Shown in pieces: positions 5,618 to 22,034 of a DNA stretch of 64,000 nucleotides (position 1 is its first letter; each line of letters starts with the position of its first letter). The DNA comes from Thermoplasmatota archaeon. GTDB lineage: Archaea > Thermoplasmatota > JAKEGO01. The notes under the pieces are model-generated. The model was not told the DNA's origin. It searched no databases and saw only the letters and a program-made list of their open reading frames with translations. The position numbers and the translations under genes were made by a program. The stretch spans positions 8,710-72,709 of the forward strand of contig JANQNK010000002.1 in NCBI GenBank assembly GCA_028279595.1, given 5' to 3'.

Positions 5618-6340
5618 ATGGCGCAATCGAAGGTCCCAAAATCGGTAGACGAAGTTATCAAGGAAATCGAGTCGTTCGAAAAGGAAGTACAAAAGATCGG
5701 AAGACAAGCTTTCAAACAAGGAGAATATATACAAACGAAAATTCTGATCGAGTCCGCGACCCGAATGAACACATTGAAGAAATCATTCAACGAGCTCGGA
5801 ATGGAACTAAGCGATGTGTTCTCAGACGCGGAAGCTCAACTTAAGAACCTTCCTGCAGGAAAAACTCGTACGTCGACGAAACGTATACCACGCGGAAAGA
5901 AAACTCCGGAGGACGCATATCGAGAACCGATACTCAATGCACTCTCAGAACTCGGTGGGAAAGGAACTACATCAGAGGTCCTCGACAAGGTCTACGAACA
6001 GTTGAAAGACGTCCTAAATCAATTCGATAAACAACCAGTCCCCTCAGTACCTTCACAACAGAGGTGGCGACACACTGCGCAGATCGTCCGAAACAAGATG
6101 ATGAATGAAGGCTTGGTCAAGAAGAACTCGCCTCGCGGTATTTGGGAAATTTCTACCGCCGGGACGAAGACGATCACACCGAATAAGTCCTCAAAGAAAT
6201 CGTCTCAATCGAAGAAGAGCTCATCGTCGAAGAAATCGACGTCCAAACCTAAATCCAAGACCTCTTCCAAGAAGCAGTCGTCTTCGAAGAAGTCCACGAC
6301 TCTGGAAAAGACGGAATCGAAACCTGACGCGAAGAAGTAA
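5618..6340 (+). CDS. Coiled-coil + Mrr-N-like winged-helix protein with Lys/Ser-rich tail
   Basis: 'PILNALSELGG...RW...R..M...GL..NSPRGIWEIS' resembles the Mrr N-terminal wHTH; SSKK-repeat C-terminal tail; no nuclease domain. Confidence 0.75.
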   Translation: MAQSKVPKSVDEVIKEIESFEKEVQKIGRQAFKQGEYIQTKILIESATRMNTLKKSFNELGMELSDVFSDAEAQLKNLPAGKTRTSTKRIPRGKKTPEDAYREPILNALSELGGKGTTSEVLDKVYEQLKDVLNQFDKQPVPSVPSQQRWRHTAQIVRNKMMNEGLVKKNSPRGIWEISTAGTKTITPNKSSKKSSQSKKSSSSKKSTSKPKSKTSSKKQSSSKKSTTLEKTESKPDAKK

Positions 6341-7072: not shown

Positions 7073-10000
7073 TCATGTTCTTCGTCGGGAATTCCAAAGA
7101 ATGGCGGTAATAACAATAAAGATTGTCGGGAGAATCGCGATTTCAGGGATCTTTTCGGGAGAACTCGTTTCGACTGGATCTTCGTGAGGATATCTGTCCT
7201 CAGCATTGCCGGGACCGTCTATGGAGTATGTACCCGAACCGCTCCAATCGGACCAATAATTCCCCTCGGTGATACCATCATCCCATTCATTGTGTGATGT
7301 ATTGTCGTAAGCTTGGGACGATGCACCAGTATTGTTCGCGAAGTTATTATGGTGAACCTTCATTTGTGTTGACCCTGAAGAGTATATTCCATAATTGCCA
7401 TTCCCGAATATCTCATTGAAGATAATGGTAATATTGTCAGAGGAGCTAATGAATAATCCGTAATCATCGTTGTTAGAGCAGGTATTGTTTGCTACATGAA
7501 TTTTGACAGAGGAATTGTAATGGATACCAATGTAGTTATCAGACACGTTACAATTCTTGATTGTATGGCCATATGAACCATTCGAATAAATTCCTTGAAC
7601 GTTGTCAATTATCGTGCTATTAAAGATAGCGGCACTGTTATTCGTTAAGTTAATTCCTGCGCGGCTTCCGTTCCGGATCGTGATATGGCTGATATTAACA
7701 TCTGAACCGGTTATTTCGATAACATTCCCGGTATTATTCCCATCAATGATCGTCTCTTCAGAACCATTGCCAACAATCGTTATTGATACGGGAATAACCA
7801 GGTTCTCTATGAATAATCCTTCATAAACTAATATCGTGTCACCTGCAGTTGCATTATCGATTGCATCCTGAATAAATTGGTAATCTGCTCCCCCATCATC
7901 ATCTACAGTGATGATTGAAGAACTATATATTCCTTCTATCCTAATTGGCCAACTATTACAGAACGAGAATGGTTGGCTTATTCCATCGTCTATGGTGGCA
8001 CAGATGTAATGAGTACCATTCGTGACATTTGTTATATCCCATTCAATTGTACCAAATCTATCGTTCTCCTCATGGTAACCTATTAGATTATCACCAGATT
8101 CTCCATCCGAGTATGTGAATGTGACATTGGCTATACTATCTTTGTCGCTCGCGTAGTATGAGATAGCTATAGTTTCTGATGCCATACGATTAACTGTCAA
8201 TTGGTCGATATTTGGAATGAGGATCACATACGGCATATCATTTCCACCAACCTCGATATCAAGTTCATTTACCAGAGGATATCGATCTTTAGCAGGACTA
8301 TCTCCATCGATGTGATATTTTTCTTCTCCAATACCATCGTCATCAGTATCCGTACCTGTGTAATCCGACCAATAGTTGCCACTCGATCCATAATCCCAGT
8401 CATTGCTGGAACTGTTCCCACCATCGTCCAATCCTTGTGCAGTTGCGTTGATCGAAATAATGTTGTCAATGAAATTATTATGATGTATCATGCATCGAAC
8501 GGTGAATCTATCCGCGGACACCCCATACCCGTGGTTACGACGCAATTCATTATCATAGATTGATATTGTACGAGCCTCATCAAGAACGATACCTTCACCT
8601 TGATTATTAATGAATAAGTTATTCTGAATGATGAACCTCTTCGAGTCCATGATATCCAATCCTATTGAATTATTGATAAAAGAACAATTCTTGACCATAA
8701 GTCCTTCCGAACTATAGCTCCGTAGACCTACTCCGATGTTGTCTGAAATGTTATTGTCAATATATGTGTCGTCAACAGCATTTCGTGAGAGAATCGCTTC
8801 GTCCCAGTTATTCCTCATGATACAATTAACGAATGAATTCTCGAGAGTGTCCCTCAAGTACAGGCTTCTTCTGCTTCCTGAAAGGTTCGAATTTATTACA
8901 AGGTTCCGAATACCTGTGTCCATAGAAAATGCATTACTTGAAGCGCTATGGATTTCACATCCTGAGATTGTATTATTATCACCGTCGTTCATTGTCAATC
9001 CAACACTACTTGGATTATCTATCGTACAGTTGAATAGTGTCGAATTATCAACTCCTATCATGTATACTGATCGCGCGGATACATTAACAAAATAGACGTT
9101 GGACGATTGAAACAGTCGGATATTCGCGGGTACTTCTACTTTCTTGGAGCTCTCAAAGATAACGTTGTTGCAGTGAGCCATCATTATGTGCGGGCTTGCA
9201 TTGAATTGCGCTCCATCGTAGGAGAAATAGGAGCAATTGACAACGATTATCTGTCCTACGTCGTTTGGTATTATAAATTCACTACTATTTAATTTGAAAA
9301 AAACCTGTTTTCCATTGACTGTATTATTAAAGATAAAGTGGGTTGTGAAGTGTTCGATATCAGAACCCCAGAATTGTATGGAATCGTTCACGAGGGTACA
9401 ATCAGTGACACGGGATCCCGTTGCAGAATTTATTAGGATTCCGCCACCAATTCCACTGTCGGAAACCGTACAGTTGACTATAGATGTTCTCTGACCCATA
9501 ACACCGATCCCGGTCCCCGATGTAAAAGTAATATTACTATTGGTAATTGTTGTATTATCGCTTTTCGACCTGATTCCGGACAGGCAATGTTCAATCAGAC
9601 AATTGTCAATGTAGGCCTCATTGGAGTCATCAAGCCTGATCGCATAATCCTCTATCTTTGAGAAAGTGCAATTGTCTACCTTCGTATCCGTGCAGTGTTC
9701 GAAGGTCAATCCCATTGGTAATTGGTCGAAACTTGATGATGATATAGTTACGTTATCTGAATATACAACCTTCAATGTCTCGGTATAATTGAAGACACAA
9801 TCATTGATATTTACATTTGAGCTACCTACGATGATAATTTGAGACACATCTGATTCGATTGAATATGATGACTCATTCTTGATGAAGATGATCGGTTTAC
9901 CGTTAAGGGTGCAATTGGTAATCACATGTGAGTTATAATGTTGTACCTCGTTCCCTTTAATCGAAATGAACTCATCGATAAACCTGCATCGCTCGATGCT

Positions 10001-11197
10001 AATTCCTATCTTATTGTATATTTCGAACCGTCCATGGAAATAATCGTTATACGTCCATTCGGAGGACTTGATCTTACAACCGATTACACTTGTACGATCA
10101 CCAAAATGTCGAATGGCTTTGGAATTGTTTGAGATAACACACCTCTTAATTAAGATGTCAGGGACATCCCTAAGCCAAATCCCTTCCTCCGAATTTGAGA
10201 ATATGTTGGAGCTGTATATTGACGAATATTGAGAATCACCTCTAAATTGAAACCCATTTTCATTCTGACTCAAGGTGCAATTATTGAATGTGTTATTCCA
10301 TCCATCCCATACGGATATTCCAGACTCGGTATTATTGATTATTTGAGCTTCAGTGACATTGACGTTGTCACTCCCCCATACGTCAATCCCAACCCCATCA
10401 TTATTGACGATAGTGCAACCGCGTACTACAACCCCGTCCGATCCCCTAAGGAATAGCGTTTCTGCTCCAATGATAGAATGACTAGATTTTGTGTTTCTAA
10501 GGGTTGAATTTTCAATTATGCAACTGTCAGTTCCCCAAACACCCCAAACATATATCGCATTGTCTGTACAATTATCTATCACGCATGAATCAATCGTAGC
10601 ATTGGCTGAAGTGATCATGATTCCAATACCGCTAATATCTTTAATCTGAGAGGCCCGAATGTTGGTGTATTGACCGTTGATGCTGATACCAGCACTACAA
10701 TTAGTGACAACAGAATCAGAGATCGTGTTGTGCGTGCGAGTGTTATTAATTCGAATTCCTTGTGTACTATTGAAGATACGACAGTCCTCAATTAGGTTTC
10801 CATGTGATGCAATCCTTAGGCCGCGATTAGTCTTGGAACCAGTGATCCCAAAAAATGAAATAGAACAATTACTAGCAGAAATCAGGAGACCATCACCATC
10901 GCCACCACTTCTAATAATCGATTCAGTCGTACCATTTCCAATTAGGAGAACACGTTTGTAAACATCGATCTCATCGATAGAGTCATCGGGAGAATAATTT
11001 CCCGCGAAAACGCGGATTGTATCACCGATCACTGCGTTTTGAATCCCATCTTGAATTGTCCCATACGGATTATCTTCTGCCCCGGTGGCAGACATGTTTC
11101 CCTCATTATCATCATCAACGTAAATTGTCGCACCTTGAGTATTGATCCCTATCAATACTAATGCTAGAATCGCTAATGCAAAGATGGTCCCTTTCAT
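7073..11197 (-). CDS. Secreted right-handed parallel beta-helix (NosD/CASH-type) repeat protein with PEF-CTERM-like anchor
   Basis: Signal peptide; many 'I.N..I..N..GI' repeats; two 'GNYWSD' motifs; C-terminal 'IPEI'+TM+RRR. Confidence 0.85.
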   Translation of the reverse strand: MKGTIFALAILALVLIGINTQGATIYVDDDNEGNMSATGAEDNPYGTIQDGIQNAVIGDTIRVFAGNYSPDDSIDEIDVYKRVLLIGNGTTESIIRSGGDGDGLLISASNCSISFFGITGSKTNRGLRIASHGNLIEDCRIFNSTQGIRINNTRTHNTISDSVVTNCSAGISINGQYTNIRASQIKDISGIGIMITSANATIDSCVIDNCTDNAIYVWGVWGTDSCIIENSTLRNTKSSHSIIGAETLFLRGSDGVVVRGCTIVNNDGVGIDVWGSDNVNVTEAQIINNTESGISVWDGWNNTFNNCTLSQNENGFQFRGDSQYSSIYSSNIFSNSEEGIWLRDVPDILIKRCVISNNSKAIRHFGDRTSVIGCKIKSSEWTYNDYFHGRFEIYNKIGISIERCRFIDEFISIKGNEVQHYNSHVITNCTLNGKPIIFIKNESSYSIESDVSQIIIVGSSNVNINDCVFNYTETLKVVYSDNVTISSSSFDQLPMGLTFEHCTDTKVDNCTFSKIEDYAIRLDDSNEAYIDNCLIEHCLSGIRSKSDNTTITNSNITFTSGTGIGVMGQRTSIVNCTVSDSGIGGGILINSATGSRVTDCTLVNDSIQFWGSDIEHFTTHFIFNNTVNGKQVFFKLNSSEFIIPNDVGQIIVVNCSYFSYDGAQFNASPHIMMAHCNNVIFESSKKVEVPANIRLFQSSNVYFVNVSARSVYMIGVDNSTLFNCTIDNPSSVGLTMNDGDNNTISGCEIHSASSNAFSMDTGIRNLVINSNLSGSRRSLYLRDTLENSFVNCIMRNNWDEAILSRNAVDDTYIDNNISDNIGVGLRSYSSEGLMVKNCSFINNSIGLDIMDSKRFIIQNNLFINNQGEGIVLDEARTISIYDNELRRNHGYGVSADRFTVRCMIHHNNFIDNIISINATAQGLDDGGNSSSNDWDYGSSGNYWSDYTGTDTDDDGIGEEKYHIDGDSPAKDRYPLVNELDIEVGGNDMPYVILIPNIDQLTVNRMASETIAISYYASDKDSIANVTFTYSDGESGDNLIGYHEENDRFGTIEWDITNVTNGTHYICATIDDGISQPFSFCNSWPIRIEGIYSSSIITVDDDGGADYQFIQDAIDNATAGDTILVYEGLFIENLVIPVSITIVGNGSEETIIDGNNTGNVIEITGSDVNISHITIRNGSRAGINLTNNSAAIFNSTIIDNVQGIYSNGSYGHTIKNCNVSDNYIGIHYNSSVKIHVANNTCSNNDDYGLFISSSDNITIIFNEIFGNGNYGIYSSGSTQMKVHHNNFANNTGASSQAYDNTSHNEWDDGITEGNYWSDWSGSGTYSIDGPGNAEDRYPHEDPVETSSPEKIPEIAILPTIFIVITAILWNSRRRT

Positions 11198-11669: not shown

Positions 11670-12995
11670 CTAGTAGTTATTAACAATCCACTGTTTTAGA
11701 AGTTGTTGTTTTTGTCCAATTTTCCCTTTTGCAATCTCGATATTTATATCATTGGGTAAGGTAGATAATATTGGGTGAATTGCTTTTAAATAGGTACTTC
11801 CTACGTTGATAAATACATCGGAATAGTCTTTGTTCTGCAGTATCTTGTGAAACTGACCTCTTATTTGGTCTATAAAGGTTTCAACATTTTCAAGGGACAA
11901 TTTTTCATCATACGGTGAAATCACCTTCGTTGGTTCAATTAAACCATATTTCGATGAAATAATAAATATATCGAATCCATCTCTATTAGAAAATGACCAA
12001 AGATGTTTCCTTAAAATTTTAAACATGATCCCATCGTATATTTTAATTGCCTGAGCCTTTTTCAATGAGGGATGTTTTGTTTTTGAGCATGAAATAATAA
12101 TCATTTTATTATTGGGGTTCCAATACTGATTCCTTGAAAGGATATTAGCGTTAATATAATCTCTAATTTGATAATATCGCTTTTTTTGAGCTGGGACATT
12201 TCCACGCTTTGGGGACGATCCTTGATATTGAAAAATCCACCCTTTATAGTCACTTCCAAATACAGAGTATCGTCTGAATAAAATATGTCGTTTTGGAGAA
12301 TAGCAACCAAGCGCGAAGAGATTAATATTGGGATAGTTATCACGAATTTCTGAGAGTATTAATCTTAAATTATCCTCATTTCTCACGTTAACGTATCTTA
12401 CACTATTAACTCTTTTTACAAGCATTCCCCCTATTCCGATATATGAATATCCCAATTCAATTAATTCTGAGACACAGTCGATATATTCATTCACTGATTT
12501 TCCTTGGGCGACTCCAAGTAATTTAAATGAATATGAGTTGTCTTGATATTCTTCGATTGCTTTTGTTGCACTTATAAGGGTTTGAGTACGATCCTTTATA
12601 ATATCAATAATTACTCCAAAATCAATTTTCAGCTTTTCGTACTCTTGAAATAAATATGTATAATCTAAATTTGAATATCCTTCTTTCGTAAAAACTGCAG
12701 AGTCGCAAATTGTGAATATTTTCCTTTGAAATTCTAGTCCTGCCCGACATTGATTAATATCAATTTTATAAGGACATGGATTATCTTCAATGATGCTACA
12801 CCGTTGTGGATTGACACATGGGAAAACTTTGAATGCTTCTTTAAAATTCTTATGAGTATTTACATGTGTCATTAATCCAATATGTTTGTTCTCTGGTATC
12901 TTAATTCCACTGATTATTCTTAAGGATGCTTGTCTATCTGCAACTAAGTAAGGAGTGAATTTTTTTACATTGAGATTTGGATTAGTCATAGGCAA
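11670..12995 (-). CDS. tRNA-guanine-transglycosylase-like TIM barrel fused to a DUF6884/YaaA-like domain
   Basis: TGT-like motifs in order: DSAVF, IDII, GVAQG, IGIGG, ALG, GSD; C-terminal 'IISCSKTK...AIKIYDG..F...IISSKYGLI......PYD' motif. Confidence 0.7.
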   Translation of the reverse strand: MPMTNPNLNVKKFTPYLVADRQASLRIISGIKIPENKHIGLMTHVNTHKNFKEAFKVFPCVNPQRCSIIEDNPCPYKIDINQCRAGLEFQRKIFTICDSAVFTKEGYSNLDYTYLFQEYEKLKIDFGVIIDIIKDRTQTLISATKAIEEYQDNSYSFKLLGVAQGKSVNEYIDCVSELIELGYSYIGIGGMLVKRVNSVRYVNVRNEDNLRLILSEIRDNYPNINLFALGCYSPKRHILFRRYSVFGSDYKGWIFQYQGSSPKRGNVPAQKKRYYQIRDYINANILSRNQYWNPNNKMIIISCSKTKHPSLKKAQAIKIYDGIMFKILRKHLWSFSNRDGFDIFIISSKYGLIEPTKVISPYDEKLSLENVETFIDQIRGQFHKILQNKDYSDVFINVGSTYLKAIHPILSTLPNDINIEIAKGKIGQKQQLLKQWIVNNY

Positions 12996-16507: not shown

Positions 16508-17503
16508 TTATTTTTCGTAAATTGCCAAAACGTTCATATCAGGTTCAGATTTCATTGTGCCAATTATCCGGATTCCATGTTTATATCCACGTTTAATAAA
16601 ATTGTAGGCAAATACTCCAGTATCGTAATCACCATTCGGACAAACGTGTAAATGTAATGTGTCTCCCGAATTCGTTAAAGGTACACGATAATCAATCCAT
16701 GAAATTCGGCCATTTTCTGATGCAGAATTTTCTACCACTCGAATAGCGTCATCCTCGTTGAAATGATCGTTAAACCATTGCCAATATTCTTTCCTCTTCT
16801 TTCGTACTGAGGCAGTCATATTTCCGGACTCATAGGTTGGAGGTTTACACCGGTGATCAGACGAAAGCAATTTATCATAAAGGAGCTCAATTTTCCCATT
16901 TTCAAACTCACAAGCGGTAGGTATTAATTTTGTCTCAGGAACATCATTTGTTTTCGATTCCGATTGACTTGGTAAATTTAAAAACACCAATGACCTTGGA
17001 ACTGAAATTATACTATTTGGATCTCTCCATTGTTTCTCATCTGTGCCGTTTTCGACGATGAATAATCTTTCAGGATAGCTTGATAAATAATGTAATGATA
17101 AATTTATCAACTGACGATATGGGTTATTTACTGGTTGAAGTCGCACATTATATCCAGATTTTGCGGTTGTTCCTTCACCTACTTCTTTACCTTTCTCAGC
17201 TGAGATGCTTGGTTTAATGAATGTGAATATTCCGCTCAACAGGCTCCCGATTTCAGTTGTCGTTACAGAGCTGGAAAGATTTAATTTTTTTCGTATTTGT
17301 TTAACATTGGATTCGGATAACTGAAACTCATAAAACTCCTGATCAAAATCAGGTCTTACGATGGCATCGTAGAAATTACTGATTTGAGGCTTATCAATAA
17401 AACATGGTGCGTCAGCCATCCAACCCAGAGAGAGTATCTTATTATTGATGAGATCCTTCTTCATTTCATCAATCCCCCTATGTAACCCATATATATGTAT
17501 CAA
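16508..17503 (-). CDS. Uncharacterised protein, first gene of the SIR2-ATPase operon (true start may be a downstream Met)
   Basis: 331-aa ORF ending 19 nt before the next start, same strand, same AT-rich composition. Confidence 0.7.
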   Translation of the reverse strand: MIHIYGLHRGIDEMKKDLINNKILSLGWMADAPCFIDKPQISNFYDAIVRPDFDQEFYEFQLSESNVKQIRKKLNLSSSVTTTEIGSLLSGIFTFIKPSISAEKGKEVGEGTTAKSGYNVRLQPVNNPYRQLINLSLHYLSSYPERLFIVENGTDEKQWRDPNSIISVPRSLVFLNLPSQSESKTNDVPETKLIPTACEFENGKIELLYDKLLSSDHRCKPPTYESGNMTASVRKKRKEYWQWFNDHFNEDDAIRVVENSASENGRISWIDYRVPLTNSGDTLHLHVCPNGDYDTGVFAYNFIKRGYKHGIRIIGTMKSEPDMNVLAIYEK

Positions 17504-17674: not shown

Positions 17675-17860
17675 TGACAGAATCTCTTCTTGAACTAACG
17701 TTTCTTGGAAGTAACAGTTGATGGAATATAGTAAAAACGCTGATCTTGAACGTCCGTCCGTATGTGACAATTCGAAAATGTTAGTAAATACATGTAATTT
17801 CTTTGTATAGTGATTATTATTATATATTATCCACAATCATTCTGTATTTGGGAACAGGTG

Positions 17861-18484
17861 ATGACTTTGGGTAGTACTAAGAATATGTTCGGAGAAGTGA
17901 CATCCTCGGTTGATGAGTTGATGAAAAAAGCGAAAGAGAGCTCGAAACATGCCTTCAAGGTAGGAGATTACAGAGCAACAACAACTCTATCAGAAAATAT
18001 CCAAAGAATGAAGCAGCTCAAGAAAAACATGGCTGAGATCCACAAGGAATTCAATAATATCGAACACTCTGTCACATCAATACAAATAATTGAAAAACCT
18101 AGGACACGTGGTTCAAACCTTCGCGGTAAAGTGACTACCGGAAAGGATTTTATTACCCCAATTCTCAAGTCCATCAATGAACTGGGCGGTTCTGTAAAGA
18201 CAAGTGACGTTCTTAAGAAGGTAAAACAGAAGATGAGTTTTAAACTCAATGAATTTGACAAGCAACCTCTACCATCGAATCCCTCAATGCCACGATGGAA
18301 ACAAACAGCACAATCAATCCGAGTTCAAATGGTAAATGATGGCCTTCTGAAGAAGGATTCTCCAAGAGGTGTCTGGGAGATCTCAGCGCAAGGACGTAAA
18401 GCGATCGAATCCGATCAGAAGAAATCGGTAAAACCGAAATCCAAATCTCAGCTTAAAGGTAACACAAAGGCGAATTCAAAGTAA
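17861..18484 (+). CDS. Second coiled-coil + Mrr-N-like winged-helix protein with basic tail (paralogue of 5618-6340)
   Basis: Shares 'AFK.G.Y', 'PIL....ELGG', 'LN.FDKQP.PS.PS..RW..TAQ..R..M...GL.KK.SPRG.WEIS'. Confidence 0.75.
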   Translation: MTLGSTKNMFGEVTSSVDELMKKAKESSKHAFKVGDYRATTTLSENIQRMKQLKKNMAEIHKEFNNIEHSVTSIQIIEKPRTRGSNLRGKVTTGKDFITPILKSINELGGSVKTSDVLKKVKQKMSFKLNEFDKQPLPSNPSMPRWKQTAQSIRVQMVNDGLLKKDSPRGVWEISAQGRKAIESDQKKSVKPKSKSQLKGNTKANSK

Positions 18485-20402: not shown

Positions 20403-21350
20403 CTAGATTCTTAGTTTAGGGATGTAGGAGAGGTACATTCGACGAAGCTCGGCGGCGTCGATGTGATGGTATATGTCAATTGCCTCTGCACGGCGGTCGC
20501 CTCTAAGCTCCTTGACATGCTCTCTCGGCATTCCGGACCGGATAAGATGCGTCGTGAACCAATGTCGGAGGCAGTGAGGGCCGAAGTGATCCTCAAATTT
20601 GTCGGAGTCGGGATTGTGGAAACCGAGCTTAATTGCCGGATTAACGATGGCTTTCCATGCCGCGTTTCGGGAGAGTCGTGATCCTGTCTGGTAACTCACG
20701 AAGAGAGCATCGGTGGTAGTCCCGAGTTTATCACGGACTCTCATCCACCGTTGGAGTGCCCTCGAAGCCTCGTCGTCGAAGAAGACTCGCCGGTTGGACC
20801 GCTTCGGGGTGGGTTTGAGCATAGCGGATCCTTCGGTCCAATTGATATCGCTGACGTCGAGCTTGAGCATCTCACCTCGTCGTATACCGGTCTTCGCGAG
20901 GAGCAGTATCATCGCCTTGTCACGGGGATCCATTACGGCACTCACGAGAGCGGAGAGCTGTTCAACTGACAGTAACTGACGTGTCGATTGCTCATGGCCG
21001 TTCTTATAGCGCTTCAAATAGCGCTTTCGGAACGGAAGAACGAGGTTATTGTCGACATACTCCTCGAACATGAGGTAATCGTAGAACGACGAGAGGACCG
21101 AGAAGTAGTTCTCAAGTGTCTTGAACTTGACCTTACGCTCCTCCATAAGGTAAGATAGGAAATCTCGGAGAGTGTCCATACTAAGGTCCAACGGAGAAAT
21201 TTCGTGACGATTGAGGTATTGAATGAAAATGTTCAGACTCGTTTGATAGTGGCGGATCGATTCCATGGTCATATTCTGCAACTTGCAGTCTTCGATGTAT
21301 GCCTCTAGCAGGGCATCAGGATCCATTTTCTTGCCCTTCTTCTTTGCCAT
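20403..21350 (-). CDS. Tyrosine recombinase/integrase
   Basis: TGIRRGE, HCLRH, LRGD, IDIY catalytic-box motifs; N-terminal core-binding region; start coupled to upstream gene by TGATG overlap. Confidence 0.92.
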   Translation of the reverse strand: MAKKKGKKMDPDALLEAYIEDCKLQNMTMESIRHYQTSLNIFIQYLNRHEISPLDLSMDTLRDFLSYLMEERKVKFKTLENYFSVLSSFYDYLMFEEYVDNNLVLPFRKRYLKRYKNGHEQSTRQLLSVEQLSALVSAVMDPRDKAMILLLAKTGIRRGEMLKLDVSDINWTEGSAMLKPTPKRSNRRVFFDDEASRALQRWMRVRDKLGTTTDALFVSYQTGSRLSRNAAWKAIVNPAIKLGFHNPDSDKFEDHFGPHCLRHWFTTHLIRSGMPREHVKELRGDRRAEAIDIYHHIDAAELRRMYLSYIPKLRI

Positions 21351-21895
21351 CACGAACCCCTCCAACGCCATTTCTTGCCGAGACATTCAACGACACCTAT
21401 CTGTTCTAGCATCTCTAGCTGGATCGAGATCGCATTAATGAAATCCGATTGTGTTGACTTTATACCAAGCTTCCGCAGGATGTCGCCTTGAGTAAGAGGT
21501 TTGGTTGACGACCTGAGTATCTCTATTAGTTCCGGATCGAATGGCCTCGGTCCCTCGAAGTCATTGTCGAGGAATGGTGCAGAGCGATAACGTTTCAACT
21601 CGGTGTCGAGAGAATCACTGAGATTGCGTAGCATACGATTCTCTTGTTCAAGTTCCTTGACCATCTCGTCCCTGATCTGAATCTGTTCAAGTAGTTCGAG
21701 CCGAGAAGGTCCTTGGTCCTCATCAACCTCGGTATTGAGTGAGTCAATCACGCGTTGAATGATGAACTTCGAGATAGACATGTTCTCGTTAGTGGCACGA
21801 GCCTTCCACTCTTCTGCTAACTCGACTGATGGTAAATACACATACAAGGCACGTTGTTTTATTGTCTCAGTCTTCCCTTTATTTGGTTTCCCCAT
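21350..21895 (-). CDS. Integrase-associated DNA-binding protein (RHH-like N-terminus, coiled coil, wHTH-like C-terminus)
   Basis: 'RALYVYLPS.....W...A....MSISKFI' RHH pattern; central coiled coil; terminal 'LEMLEQIGVVE...KKWRW'. Confidence 0.7.
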   Translation of the reverse strand: MGKPNKGKTETIKQRALYVYLPSVELAEEWKARATNENMSISKFIIQRVIDSLNTEVDEDQGPSRLELLEQIQIRDEMVKELEQENRMLRNLSDSLDTELKRYRSAPFLDNDFEGPRPFDPELIEILRSSTKPLTQGDILRKLGIKSTQSDFINAISIQLEMLEQIGVVECLGKKWRWRGS

Positions 21896-21946: not shown

Positions 21947-22034
21947 TGGTGCGGGGGAAGGGATTTGAACCCTCGGACTCCTTCGAGAACAGATCTTGAG
22001 TCTGCCGCCTTTGGCCAGGCTGGGCTACCCCCGC
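21947..22034 (-). tRNA. tRNA-Leu(CAA) with encoded CCA
   Basis: GCGGGGG acceptor stem, anticodon loop CT-CAA-GA, long variable arm, GGTTCAAATCC T arm, ACCA end. Confidence 0.95.

Follow-up and report, generated by a model that had tools for sequence, protein, structure and literature searches.

A DpdA-like/DpdC-like fusion enzyme with exchangeable defence partners as the probable writer of a 7-deazaguanine self-mark in DNA

The window, i.e. the whole 64,000-nucleotide stretch of Thermoplasmatota DNA analysed here, encodes an enzyme that, judged by its sequence, is a DpdA-like/DpdC-like fusion of a separate clade, and the relatives of this enzyme join at least five different anti-virus modules. 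We consider it probable that the enzyme writes dPreQ0/dADG into DNA as a self-mark: base-exchange chemistry has been kept, a DpdC domain is attached, the enzyme takes the modification slot in unrelated machines and an importer at times accompanies it, and together these points make a writer the best reading. A literature search found no paper on this TGT/DUF6884 family or on CARF6 with a SIR2~ORC/CDC6 ATPase; the substitution in DISARM-like operons, the links to SIR2/CARF and to an importer and the dispensability of a four-cysteine knot are established in the present analysis.

The reading frame opens with a TTG, from which residues are numbered; the ATG at 12989 overlaps the stop codon of the upstream gene and is, from the sequence, the likelier start (Table 1). 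A motif scan and a Pfam search recovered in their places all the motifs listed by the first-pass annotation: four cysteines spaced by five, seven and eight residues and ending 14 residues ahead of DSAVF (aa 98), FALG from aa 227 and a DUF6884 match at aa 299-435 (E 3e-17) with a weak match to YaaA, with neither a CxCxxC motif nor a Pfam match to a PUA domain in the 441-aa protein. The AlphaFold2 model of this protein (pLDDT 93) has the TGT barrel that the annotation had proposed. Its best fold match is DpdA (7ui4; Z 19.4, rmsd 3.4, 240 aligned), followed by ArcTGT (Z 18.3), bacterial TGT (Z 18.0) and Cap10 (Z 14.2), and DpdA is the top profile match as well; a single-sequence search of the PDB gave nothing useful, but the profile search did reach DpdA. 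By language-model features and shape, the Atlas clusters closest to the enzyme consist of short viral DpdA-like proteins.

Table 1. Features of the enzyme, its operon and the surrounding island (positions in the window)
Feature	Position	Strand	Remarks
DpdA-like TGT barrel fused to DpdC-like DUF6884 domain	11670..12995	-	441 aa; likely start ATG 12989, 439 aa
TGT-fold (beta/alpha)8 catalytic domain, without Zn subdomain	12123..12965	-	alignment to DpdA (PMC10164549) and Z. mobilis TGT (PMC5395182)
Four-Cys knot C60-C66-C74-C83, carried by ~30 aa inserted after helix alpha2 and before strand beta3; probably a structural metal site, dispensable	12747..12818	-	conservation, model
DUF6884 (DpdC/YaaA-like) domain with invariant CxxxK, SxxxG and PYD motifs	11691..12101	-	Pfam, alignment
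Tandem CARF-fold protein (PADLOC CARF6), 334 aa	12986..13990	-	stop overlaps TGT start
SIR2-like NADase domain fused to ORC/CDC6-like AAA+ ATPase, 833 aa	13987..16488	-	GAGVS, TTNYD, HG, Walker A/B intact
DUF6414-like gene, 331 aa, first of operon; accessory, seen in one other locus only	16508..17503	-	
XerA-like tyrosine integrase of the low-GC island holding the operon	20403..21386	-	
tRNA-Leu(CAA), probable integration site at island edge	21947..22034	-	

The two catalytic aspartates and the Asp/Gln(His)/Gly base-binding residues of the TGT superfamily are present, together with G189-G190 and an invariant K251, and the catalytic motifs are retained in 100-102 of the 102 locus proteins of the family. 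The FALG sequence had been taken as an altered HxLG; the reading is correct and its Phe takes the place of the His/Tyr hydrogen-bonded to the nucleophile, a replacement not seen in the DpdA and TGT references, but the change is a modest one, with Phe in 100 and Tyr in 4 of 104 homologues. The Z. mobilis TGT also has Tyr at this position. K251 lies two residues after the nucleophile, where the DpdA and TGT references have no Lys, and corresponds to Z. mobilis Val282 on the floor of the ribose/phosphate pocket (PMC5395182). Motif alignment pairs D98, F102, D131, Q164, L229 and D249 with DpdA D95, F99, D130, H181, L236 and D256, the roles of which have been described (PMC10164549), and we predict that D98 acts as acid/base, that F102 and L229 sandwich the base, that D131 and Q164 read its Watson-Crick edge and that D249 is the nucleophile. 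The M191-L192 pair appears closer to a preQ0-type pocket (V197/V198 in ArcTGT) than to L231/A232 of the bacterial enzyme (PMC5699537).

The enzyme is set apart from its known relatives in several respects. It has neither the CxCxxC zinc site nor the C-terminal C1/C2/PUA part of ArcTGT, and the host encodes a separate ArcTGT of 682 codons with the zinc motif, which bears out the earlier view that this is not a housekeeping ArcTGT. All bacterial DpdA (bDpdA) references keep the CxCxxC site, and its loss therefore distinguishes the enzyme from bDpdA as well as from the tRNA enzymes. The bacterial DpdA model NF041059 gives 38.7 bits, under its curated cut-off of 200 bits, and the viral DpdA profile PF23859 has no match at E 0.1. 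The phylogeny against DpdA and TGTs that the annotation had called for places the family in a clade of its own (SH-aLRT 99), separate from the bDpdA clade (98), in a quick tree the long outgroup branches of which leave the deeper branching order unsure. The predicted chemistry matches the known Dpd module, yet by score, zinc site, clade and DpdB the enzyme falls outside bDpdA and the Dpd system. We found 193 homologues at E<=0.001, many of them full length and 33-50% identical, and no relatives in viral contigs; phage records matched the DUF6884 part only.

The protein had also been credited with a nucleic-acid-binding module of its own; a fused domain is indeed there, but it is more than a binding module, namely a DpdC domain in which C303, K307, S347 and Y362 are invariant in 89/89 homologues. 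DUF6884 is matched by the genes at the dpdC position in dpd clusters of Enterobacter and Sinorhizobium and by the N-terminal portions of DpdA fusions from cyanobacteria and Paenibacillus, and these sequences align with this domain; canonical dpd clusters also have fusions in which DpdC precedes DpdA, the reverse of the order found here. According to a preprint, DUF6884 is dpdC, DpdC being the enzyme that converts preQ0 to ADG (bioRxiv 2025.02.24.639861). Over 114 loci, DUF6884 is fused C-terminally in 68, N-terminally in 3 and encoded by a separate neighbour in 28 (together 99/114). DUF6884 also covers YfjM, which is among the interactors of DNA lesions including abasic sites (PMC11701544), and for this reason amide formation by the domain is put forward here as a proposal. 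As a side observation, cyanobacterial plasmids (L069:9714-15375, L070) carry a DpdC-DpdA fusion plus a further TGT, Zn-less, between two DEAD-box helicases.

The cysteines of the knot are conserved in 82/93 (C60), 73/84 (C66), 72/82 (C74) and 80/87 (C83) of the homologues with a residue in the respective column, contrary to the outcome named as a refutation of the original proposal, and the exact spacing recurs in only 2 of 2996 six-frame ORFs (>=200 aa) of the host genome; conservation per column and rarity of spacing argue that the motif is not due to chance. Conserved cysteines and an insert that is well ordered in the AlphaFold2 model fit a putative metal site, Zn or Fe-S. The insert forms a loop leading from an alpha helix to a beta strand, and such loops of TIM barrels lie opposite the active site, so the knot is probably on the far face of the barrel. 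It is present in 74 of the 102 distinct locus proteins and was lost in several separate lineages, often by clean deletion of ~30 residues, after which the interval between beta2 and beta3 measures 22-23 residues instead of 52 and helix alpha2 leads straight into beta3. Some members with an intact active site lack the knot, so we rejected it as a catalytic centre or as a substitute for an essential zinc site; a structural metal site is likely.

The enzyme gene is the last of four co-directional genes, the last three of which have overlapping stop and start codons; no terminator was found downstream. The tandem CARF protein has Can1 as its best structure match (6sce; Z 13.6, rmsd 3.5, 231 aligned). 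GC content is 0.31-0.37 in the operon versus 0.58 in the rest of the window, and an attL repeat of the tRNA-Leu end was not found on the contig. The operon contains no cyclase for a CARF ligand, no nuclease and no DpdD-K restriction genes, and the window contains no Drm genes. Besides its ArcTGT, the host has queC, queD and queE; neither DndB/DpdB nor a NurA of the family's kind was detected in its genome (86% complete), and 1.3 Mb of loci likewise gave no DndB/DpdB.

Among 102 distinct loci, a defence module lies nearby in 98. The partner is HerA, mostly with a NurA-like gene, in 61 loci, HerA plus SIR2/CARF in 7, SIR2/CARF alone in 8, a DpdJ/DpdK-like set in 9, another helicase pair in 7 (and, with HerA, in 3 more) and a DISARM-like set in 3; 4 have none. 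In four loci a single operon comprises NurA, HerA, SIR2~ORC, CARF and the enzyme. In the cultured archaeon Methanolobus tindarius DSM 2278 (GCA_000504205.1; L167:6387-14808), a NurA-like gene, HerA and the enzyme face a convergent SIR2~ORC/CARF pair. Searches from the SIR2/CARF side found the enzyme adjoining in 3/3 informative contigs (L162, L171, L172), and the L171 relative carries a NurA remnant. We suggest that the window's form of the operon arose through loss of NurA-HerA. The closest tree neighbours of the enzyme have HerA or DISARM partners (clade support 99); close relatives have different partners, so partners are swapped, as is the case with modification genes.

Three further observations concern these neighbourhoods. 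NurA-HerA is divergent from the enzyme in L002 and L164, with HerA as two ORFs in L164. In L118 (5427-5984) and 8 other loci the operon has a small GIY-YIG gene as its neighbour, in most cases immediately downstream of the enzyme. Upstream of family members in L124 (601-7988), L133, L145 and L157 are a ~1460-aa DpdJ/DruE-like helicase and an unannotated ~990-aa protein; the N-terminus of the L124 helicase looks MoaD/ubiquitin-like by eye.

DISARM normally has a methyltransferase (PMC9142583, PMC9252829). In DISARM-like operons of the family (L160:1738-9980, L166:11573-19606, L008, L082; L166 is additional to the three counted above) the first gene, of ~750 aa, matches neither DrmD nor DrmE, the enzyme adjoins DrmA, DrmB and DrmC, and no methyltransferase motif was found in these four independent loci. 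The enzyme fills the methyltransferase's modification slot beside DrmA/DrmB/DrmC. In five loci a gene for a Vut/YhhQ precursor importer lies within the operon or immediately ahead of it, in one case in a host without queC or queD; all five belong to one clade and may represent one or two events only. We rejected the idea that every carrier makes preQ0: queC is above the cut-off in 23 of 33 carrier genomes, and the 10 without a full queC are mostly incomplete assemblies. The single chromosome of the Acidimicrobiia carrier G332 encodes an intact enzyme, and no queC, queD, queF, Vut or QueT was found in it.

Combining the observed fold, residues, family and gene context, we infer a substrate, a product, a metal site and a trigger as follows: (i) the enzyme would be the self-marking component of a restriction-modification-like defence island, (ii) its TGT barrel would install a 7-deazaguanine self-mark in place of guanine in the DNA of the cell itself, (iii) the DpdC-like domain would then turn the nitrile into an amide by hydration, giving dADG, (iv) the four-cysteine knot would serve as a structural metal site and (v) the effector modules would be interchangeable, being in the window the SIR2~ORC/CDC6 ATPase with its tandem-CARF partner. 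The SIR2 effector would most likely deplete NAD+ on unmarked DNA or on inhibition of the system. This triggering is the weakest step of the proposal, because the operon has neither a cyclase for the CARF ligand nor a nuclease. Salmonella DpdA needs DpdB (PMC10164549); here the ATPase, elsewhere HerA or a helicase, may replace the ATP step of DpdB, or the enzyme may act alone. The que genes of the host, the retention of the catalytic residues and the DpdJ/DpdK-like neighbours in some loci favour a writer, while the lack of DpdB in loci and host, the lack of preQ0 genes in G332, the Phe and Lys changes and a window without a nuclease to restrict unmarked DNA count against it.

Several of these latter points would suit a different activity, which we regard as unlikely: a TGT-fold glycosylase/AP lyase or sensor directed at invader DNA, in which it would recognise G or 7-deazaguanine and remove this base through a Schiff base at K251. 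DUF6884 would bind the abasic site, and the lesion or product would be handed to the tandem-CARF/SIR2 NADase, NurA-HerA or the helicase/PLD pair. The invariant lysine beside the nucleophile, the loss of the hydrogen-bond donor at the Phe position, the lesion association of YfjM, the absence of DpdB and of a detectable preQ0 source in the complete-looking G332 are all compatible with such an enzyme. However, Vut importers in operons imply use of a free base, and in DISARM-like loci the enzyme stands in for a methyltransferase. The exchange pocket is fully retained, as is D98, the general acid/base, and a lysine at 251 could equally contact DNA phosphate. Of the two activities originally considered, gene context favours base exchange over a glycosylase. 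A reader of modified invader DNA, if it existed, would be a defence against the deazaguanine shield of phages made from the fold of the writer.

Cap10 of type IV CBASS (bioRxiv 2025.04.06.647259; PDB 9NTN) is likewise a Zn-less TGT fold in anti-phage defence, and by analogy the barrel could control the tandem CARF and SIR2 without any DNA mark, by binding deazaguanine, or transferring it, on a signal that is a protein or a small molecule. We judge this improbable. The operon does have a CARF-fold protein and a SIR2 effector without a nuclease, and the SIR2/CARF searches consistently led to the TGT; but what Cap10 binds is a cyclase that has been deazaguanylated by Cap9 (QueC), type IV CBASS operons have a CD-NTase and Cap9/QueC that the enzyme's operon lacks, and neither a dedicated QueC/Cap9 nor a nucleotidyltransferase recurs in 114 loci. 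Moreover, the partners are mostly DNA helicases, translocases and nucleases, and DpdA scores ~5 Z units above Cap10. Least probable of all is a tRNA/RNA-acting transglycosylase or a DNA-repair enzyme riding with defence islands, for although fold and pocket are common to tRNA TGTs and YaaA and YfjM are linked to stress or repair (PMC11701544), an ordinary TGT-family gene is present separately in 33/33 carrier genomes and in the host, the PUA domain and Zn subdomain are missing and the distribution is patchy, mobile and close to defence modules. DNA is the probable substrate, as first suggested.

Returning to the writer, its nearest counterpart is the Dpd system of Salmonella Montevideo (DpdA PDB 7UI4, DpdB, DpdC; PMC10164549), with which it shares the TGT barrel, corresponding catalytic residues, DUF6884, a defence-island setting and, in some relatives, DpdJ/K-like partners. 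Unlike Dpd, it belongs to a separate clade (~19% identity), is built in the order DpdA-then-DpdC, has DYKGW as nucleophile motif, lacks the zinc site kept by bacterial DpdA, carries an optional knot and is found in loci with other effectors and no DpdB. The phage and archaeal-virus DpdA1-4 (PMC10516641; PF23859) are short barrels of ~250-290 aa that resemble it at the feature level only, whereas the enzyme family resides in cellular defence islands and carries DUF6884. DISARM (PMC9142583, PMC9252829) shares the Drm-like genes with some relatives and differs in its methyltransferase and first gene. BREX-related capture (BRC; PMC12839542) offers a parallel: these systems likewise have a TGT homologue, HerA/FtsK, an ORC/CDC6-type ATPase, no DpdB and a proposed deazaguanine self-mark, but contain PglZ, DUF6079, DUF4007 and GNAT and no DpdC, whereas the enzyme's loci have DUF6884 and NurA or SIR2/CARF.

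If the enzyme is a writer, 7-deazaguanine marking would be independent of the large Dpd operon, and one DpdB-independent protein of ~440 aa would constitute a portable self-mark that is used like a methyltransferase and, in both archaea and bacteria, serves modules of the DISARM-like, NurA-HerA, helicase/PLD and SIR2/CARF kinds. The enzyme would then be a candidate source of deazaguanine in the chromosomal DNA of archaea and, being small and encoded by one gene, a tool for studying DpdC chemistry, and with M. tindarius DSM 2278 a cultured carrier exists.

Finally, the window shows other features of note. Two stand-alone Mrr N-terminal (wHTH) genes without a nuclease domain flank the operon region (5618-6340 and 17810-18484, plus strand). 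After the operon lies a gene for a large secreted beta-helix (NosD-like) surface protein (7073-11197, minus strand), and similar genes fill the start of the contig. The integrase and its upstream HTH gene (20403-21895) have a 91-93% identical copy on contig C1 (G000 C1:10133-11705), beside another tRNA-Leu; the two copies mark related integrative elements.
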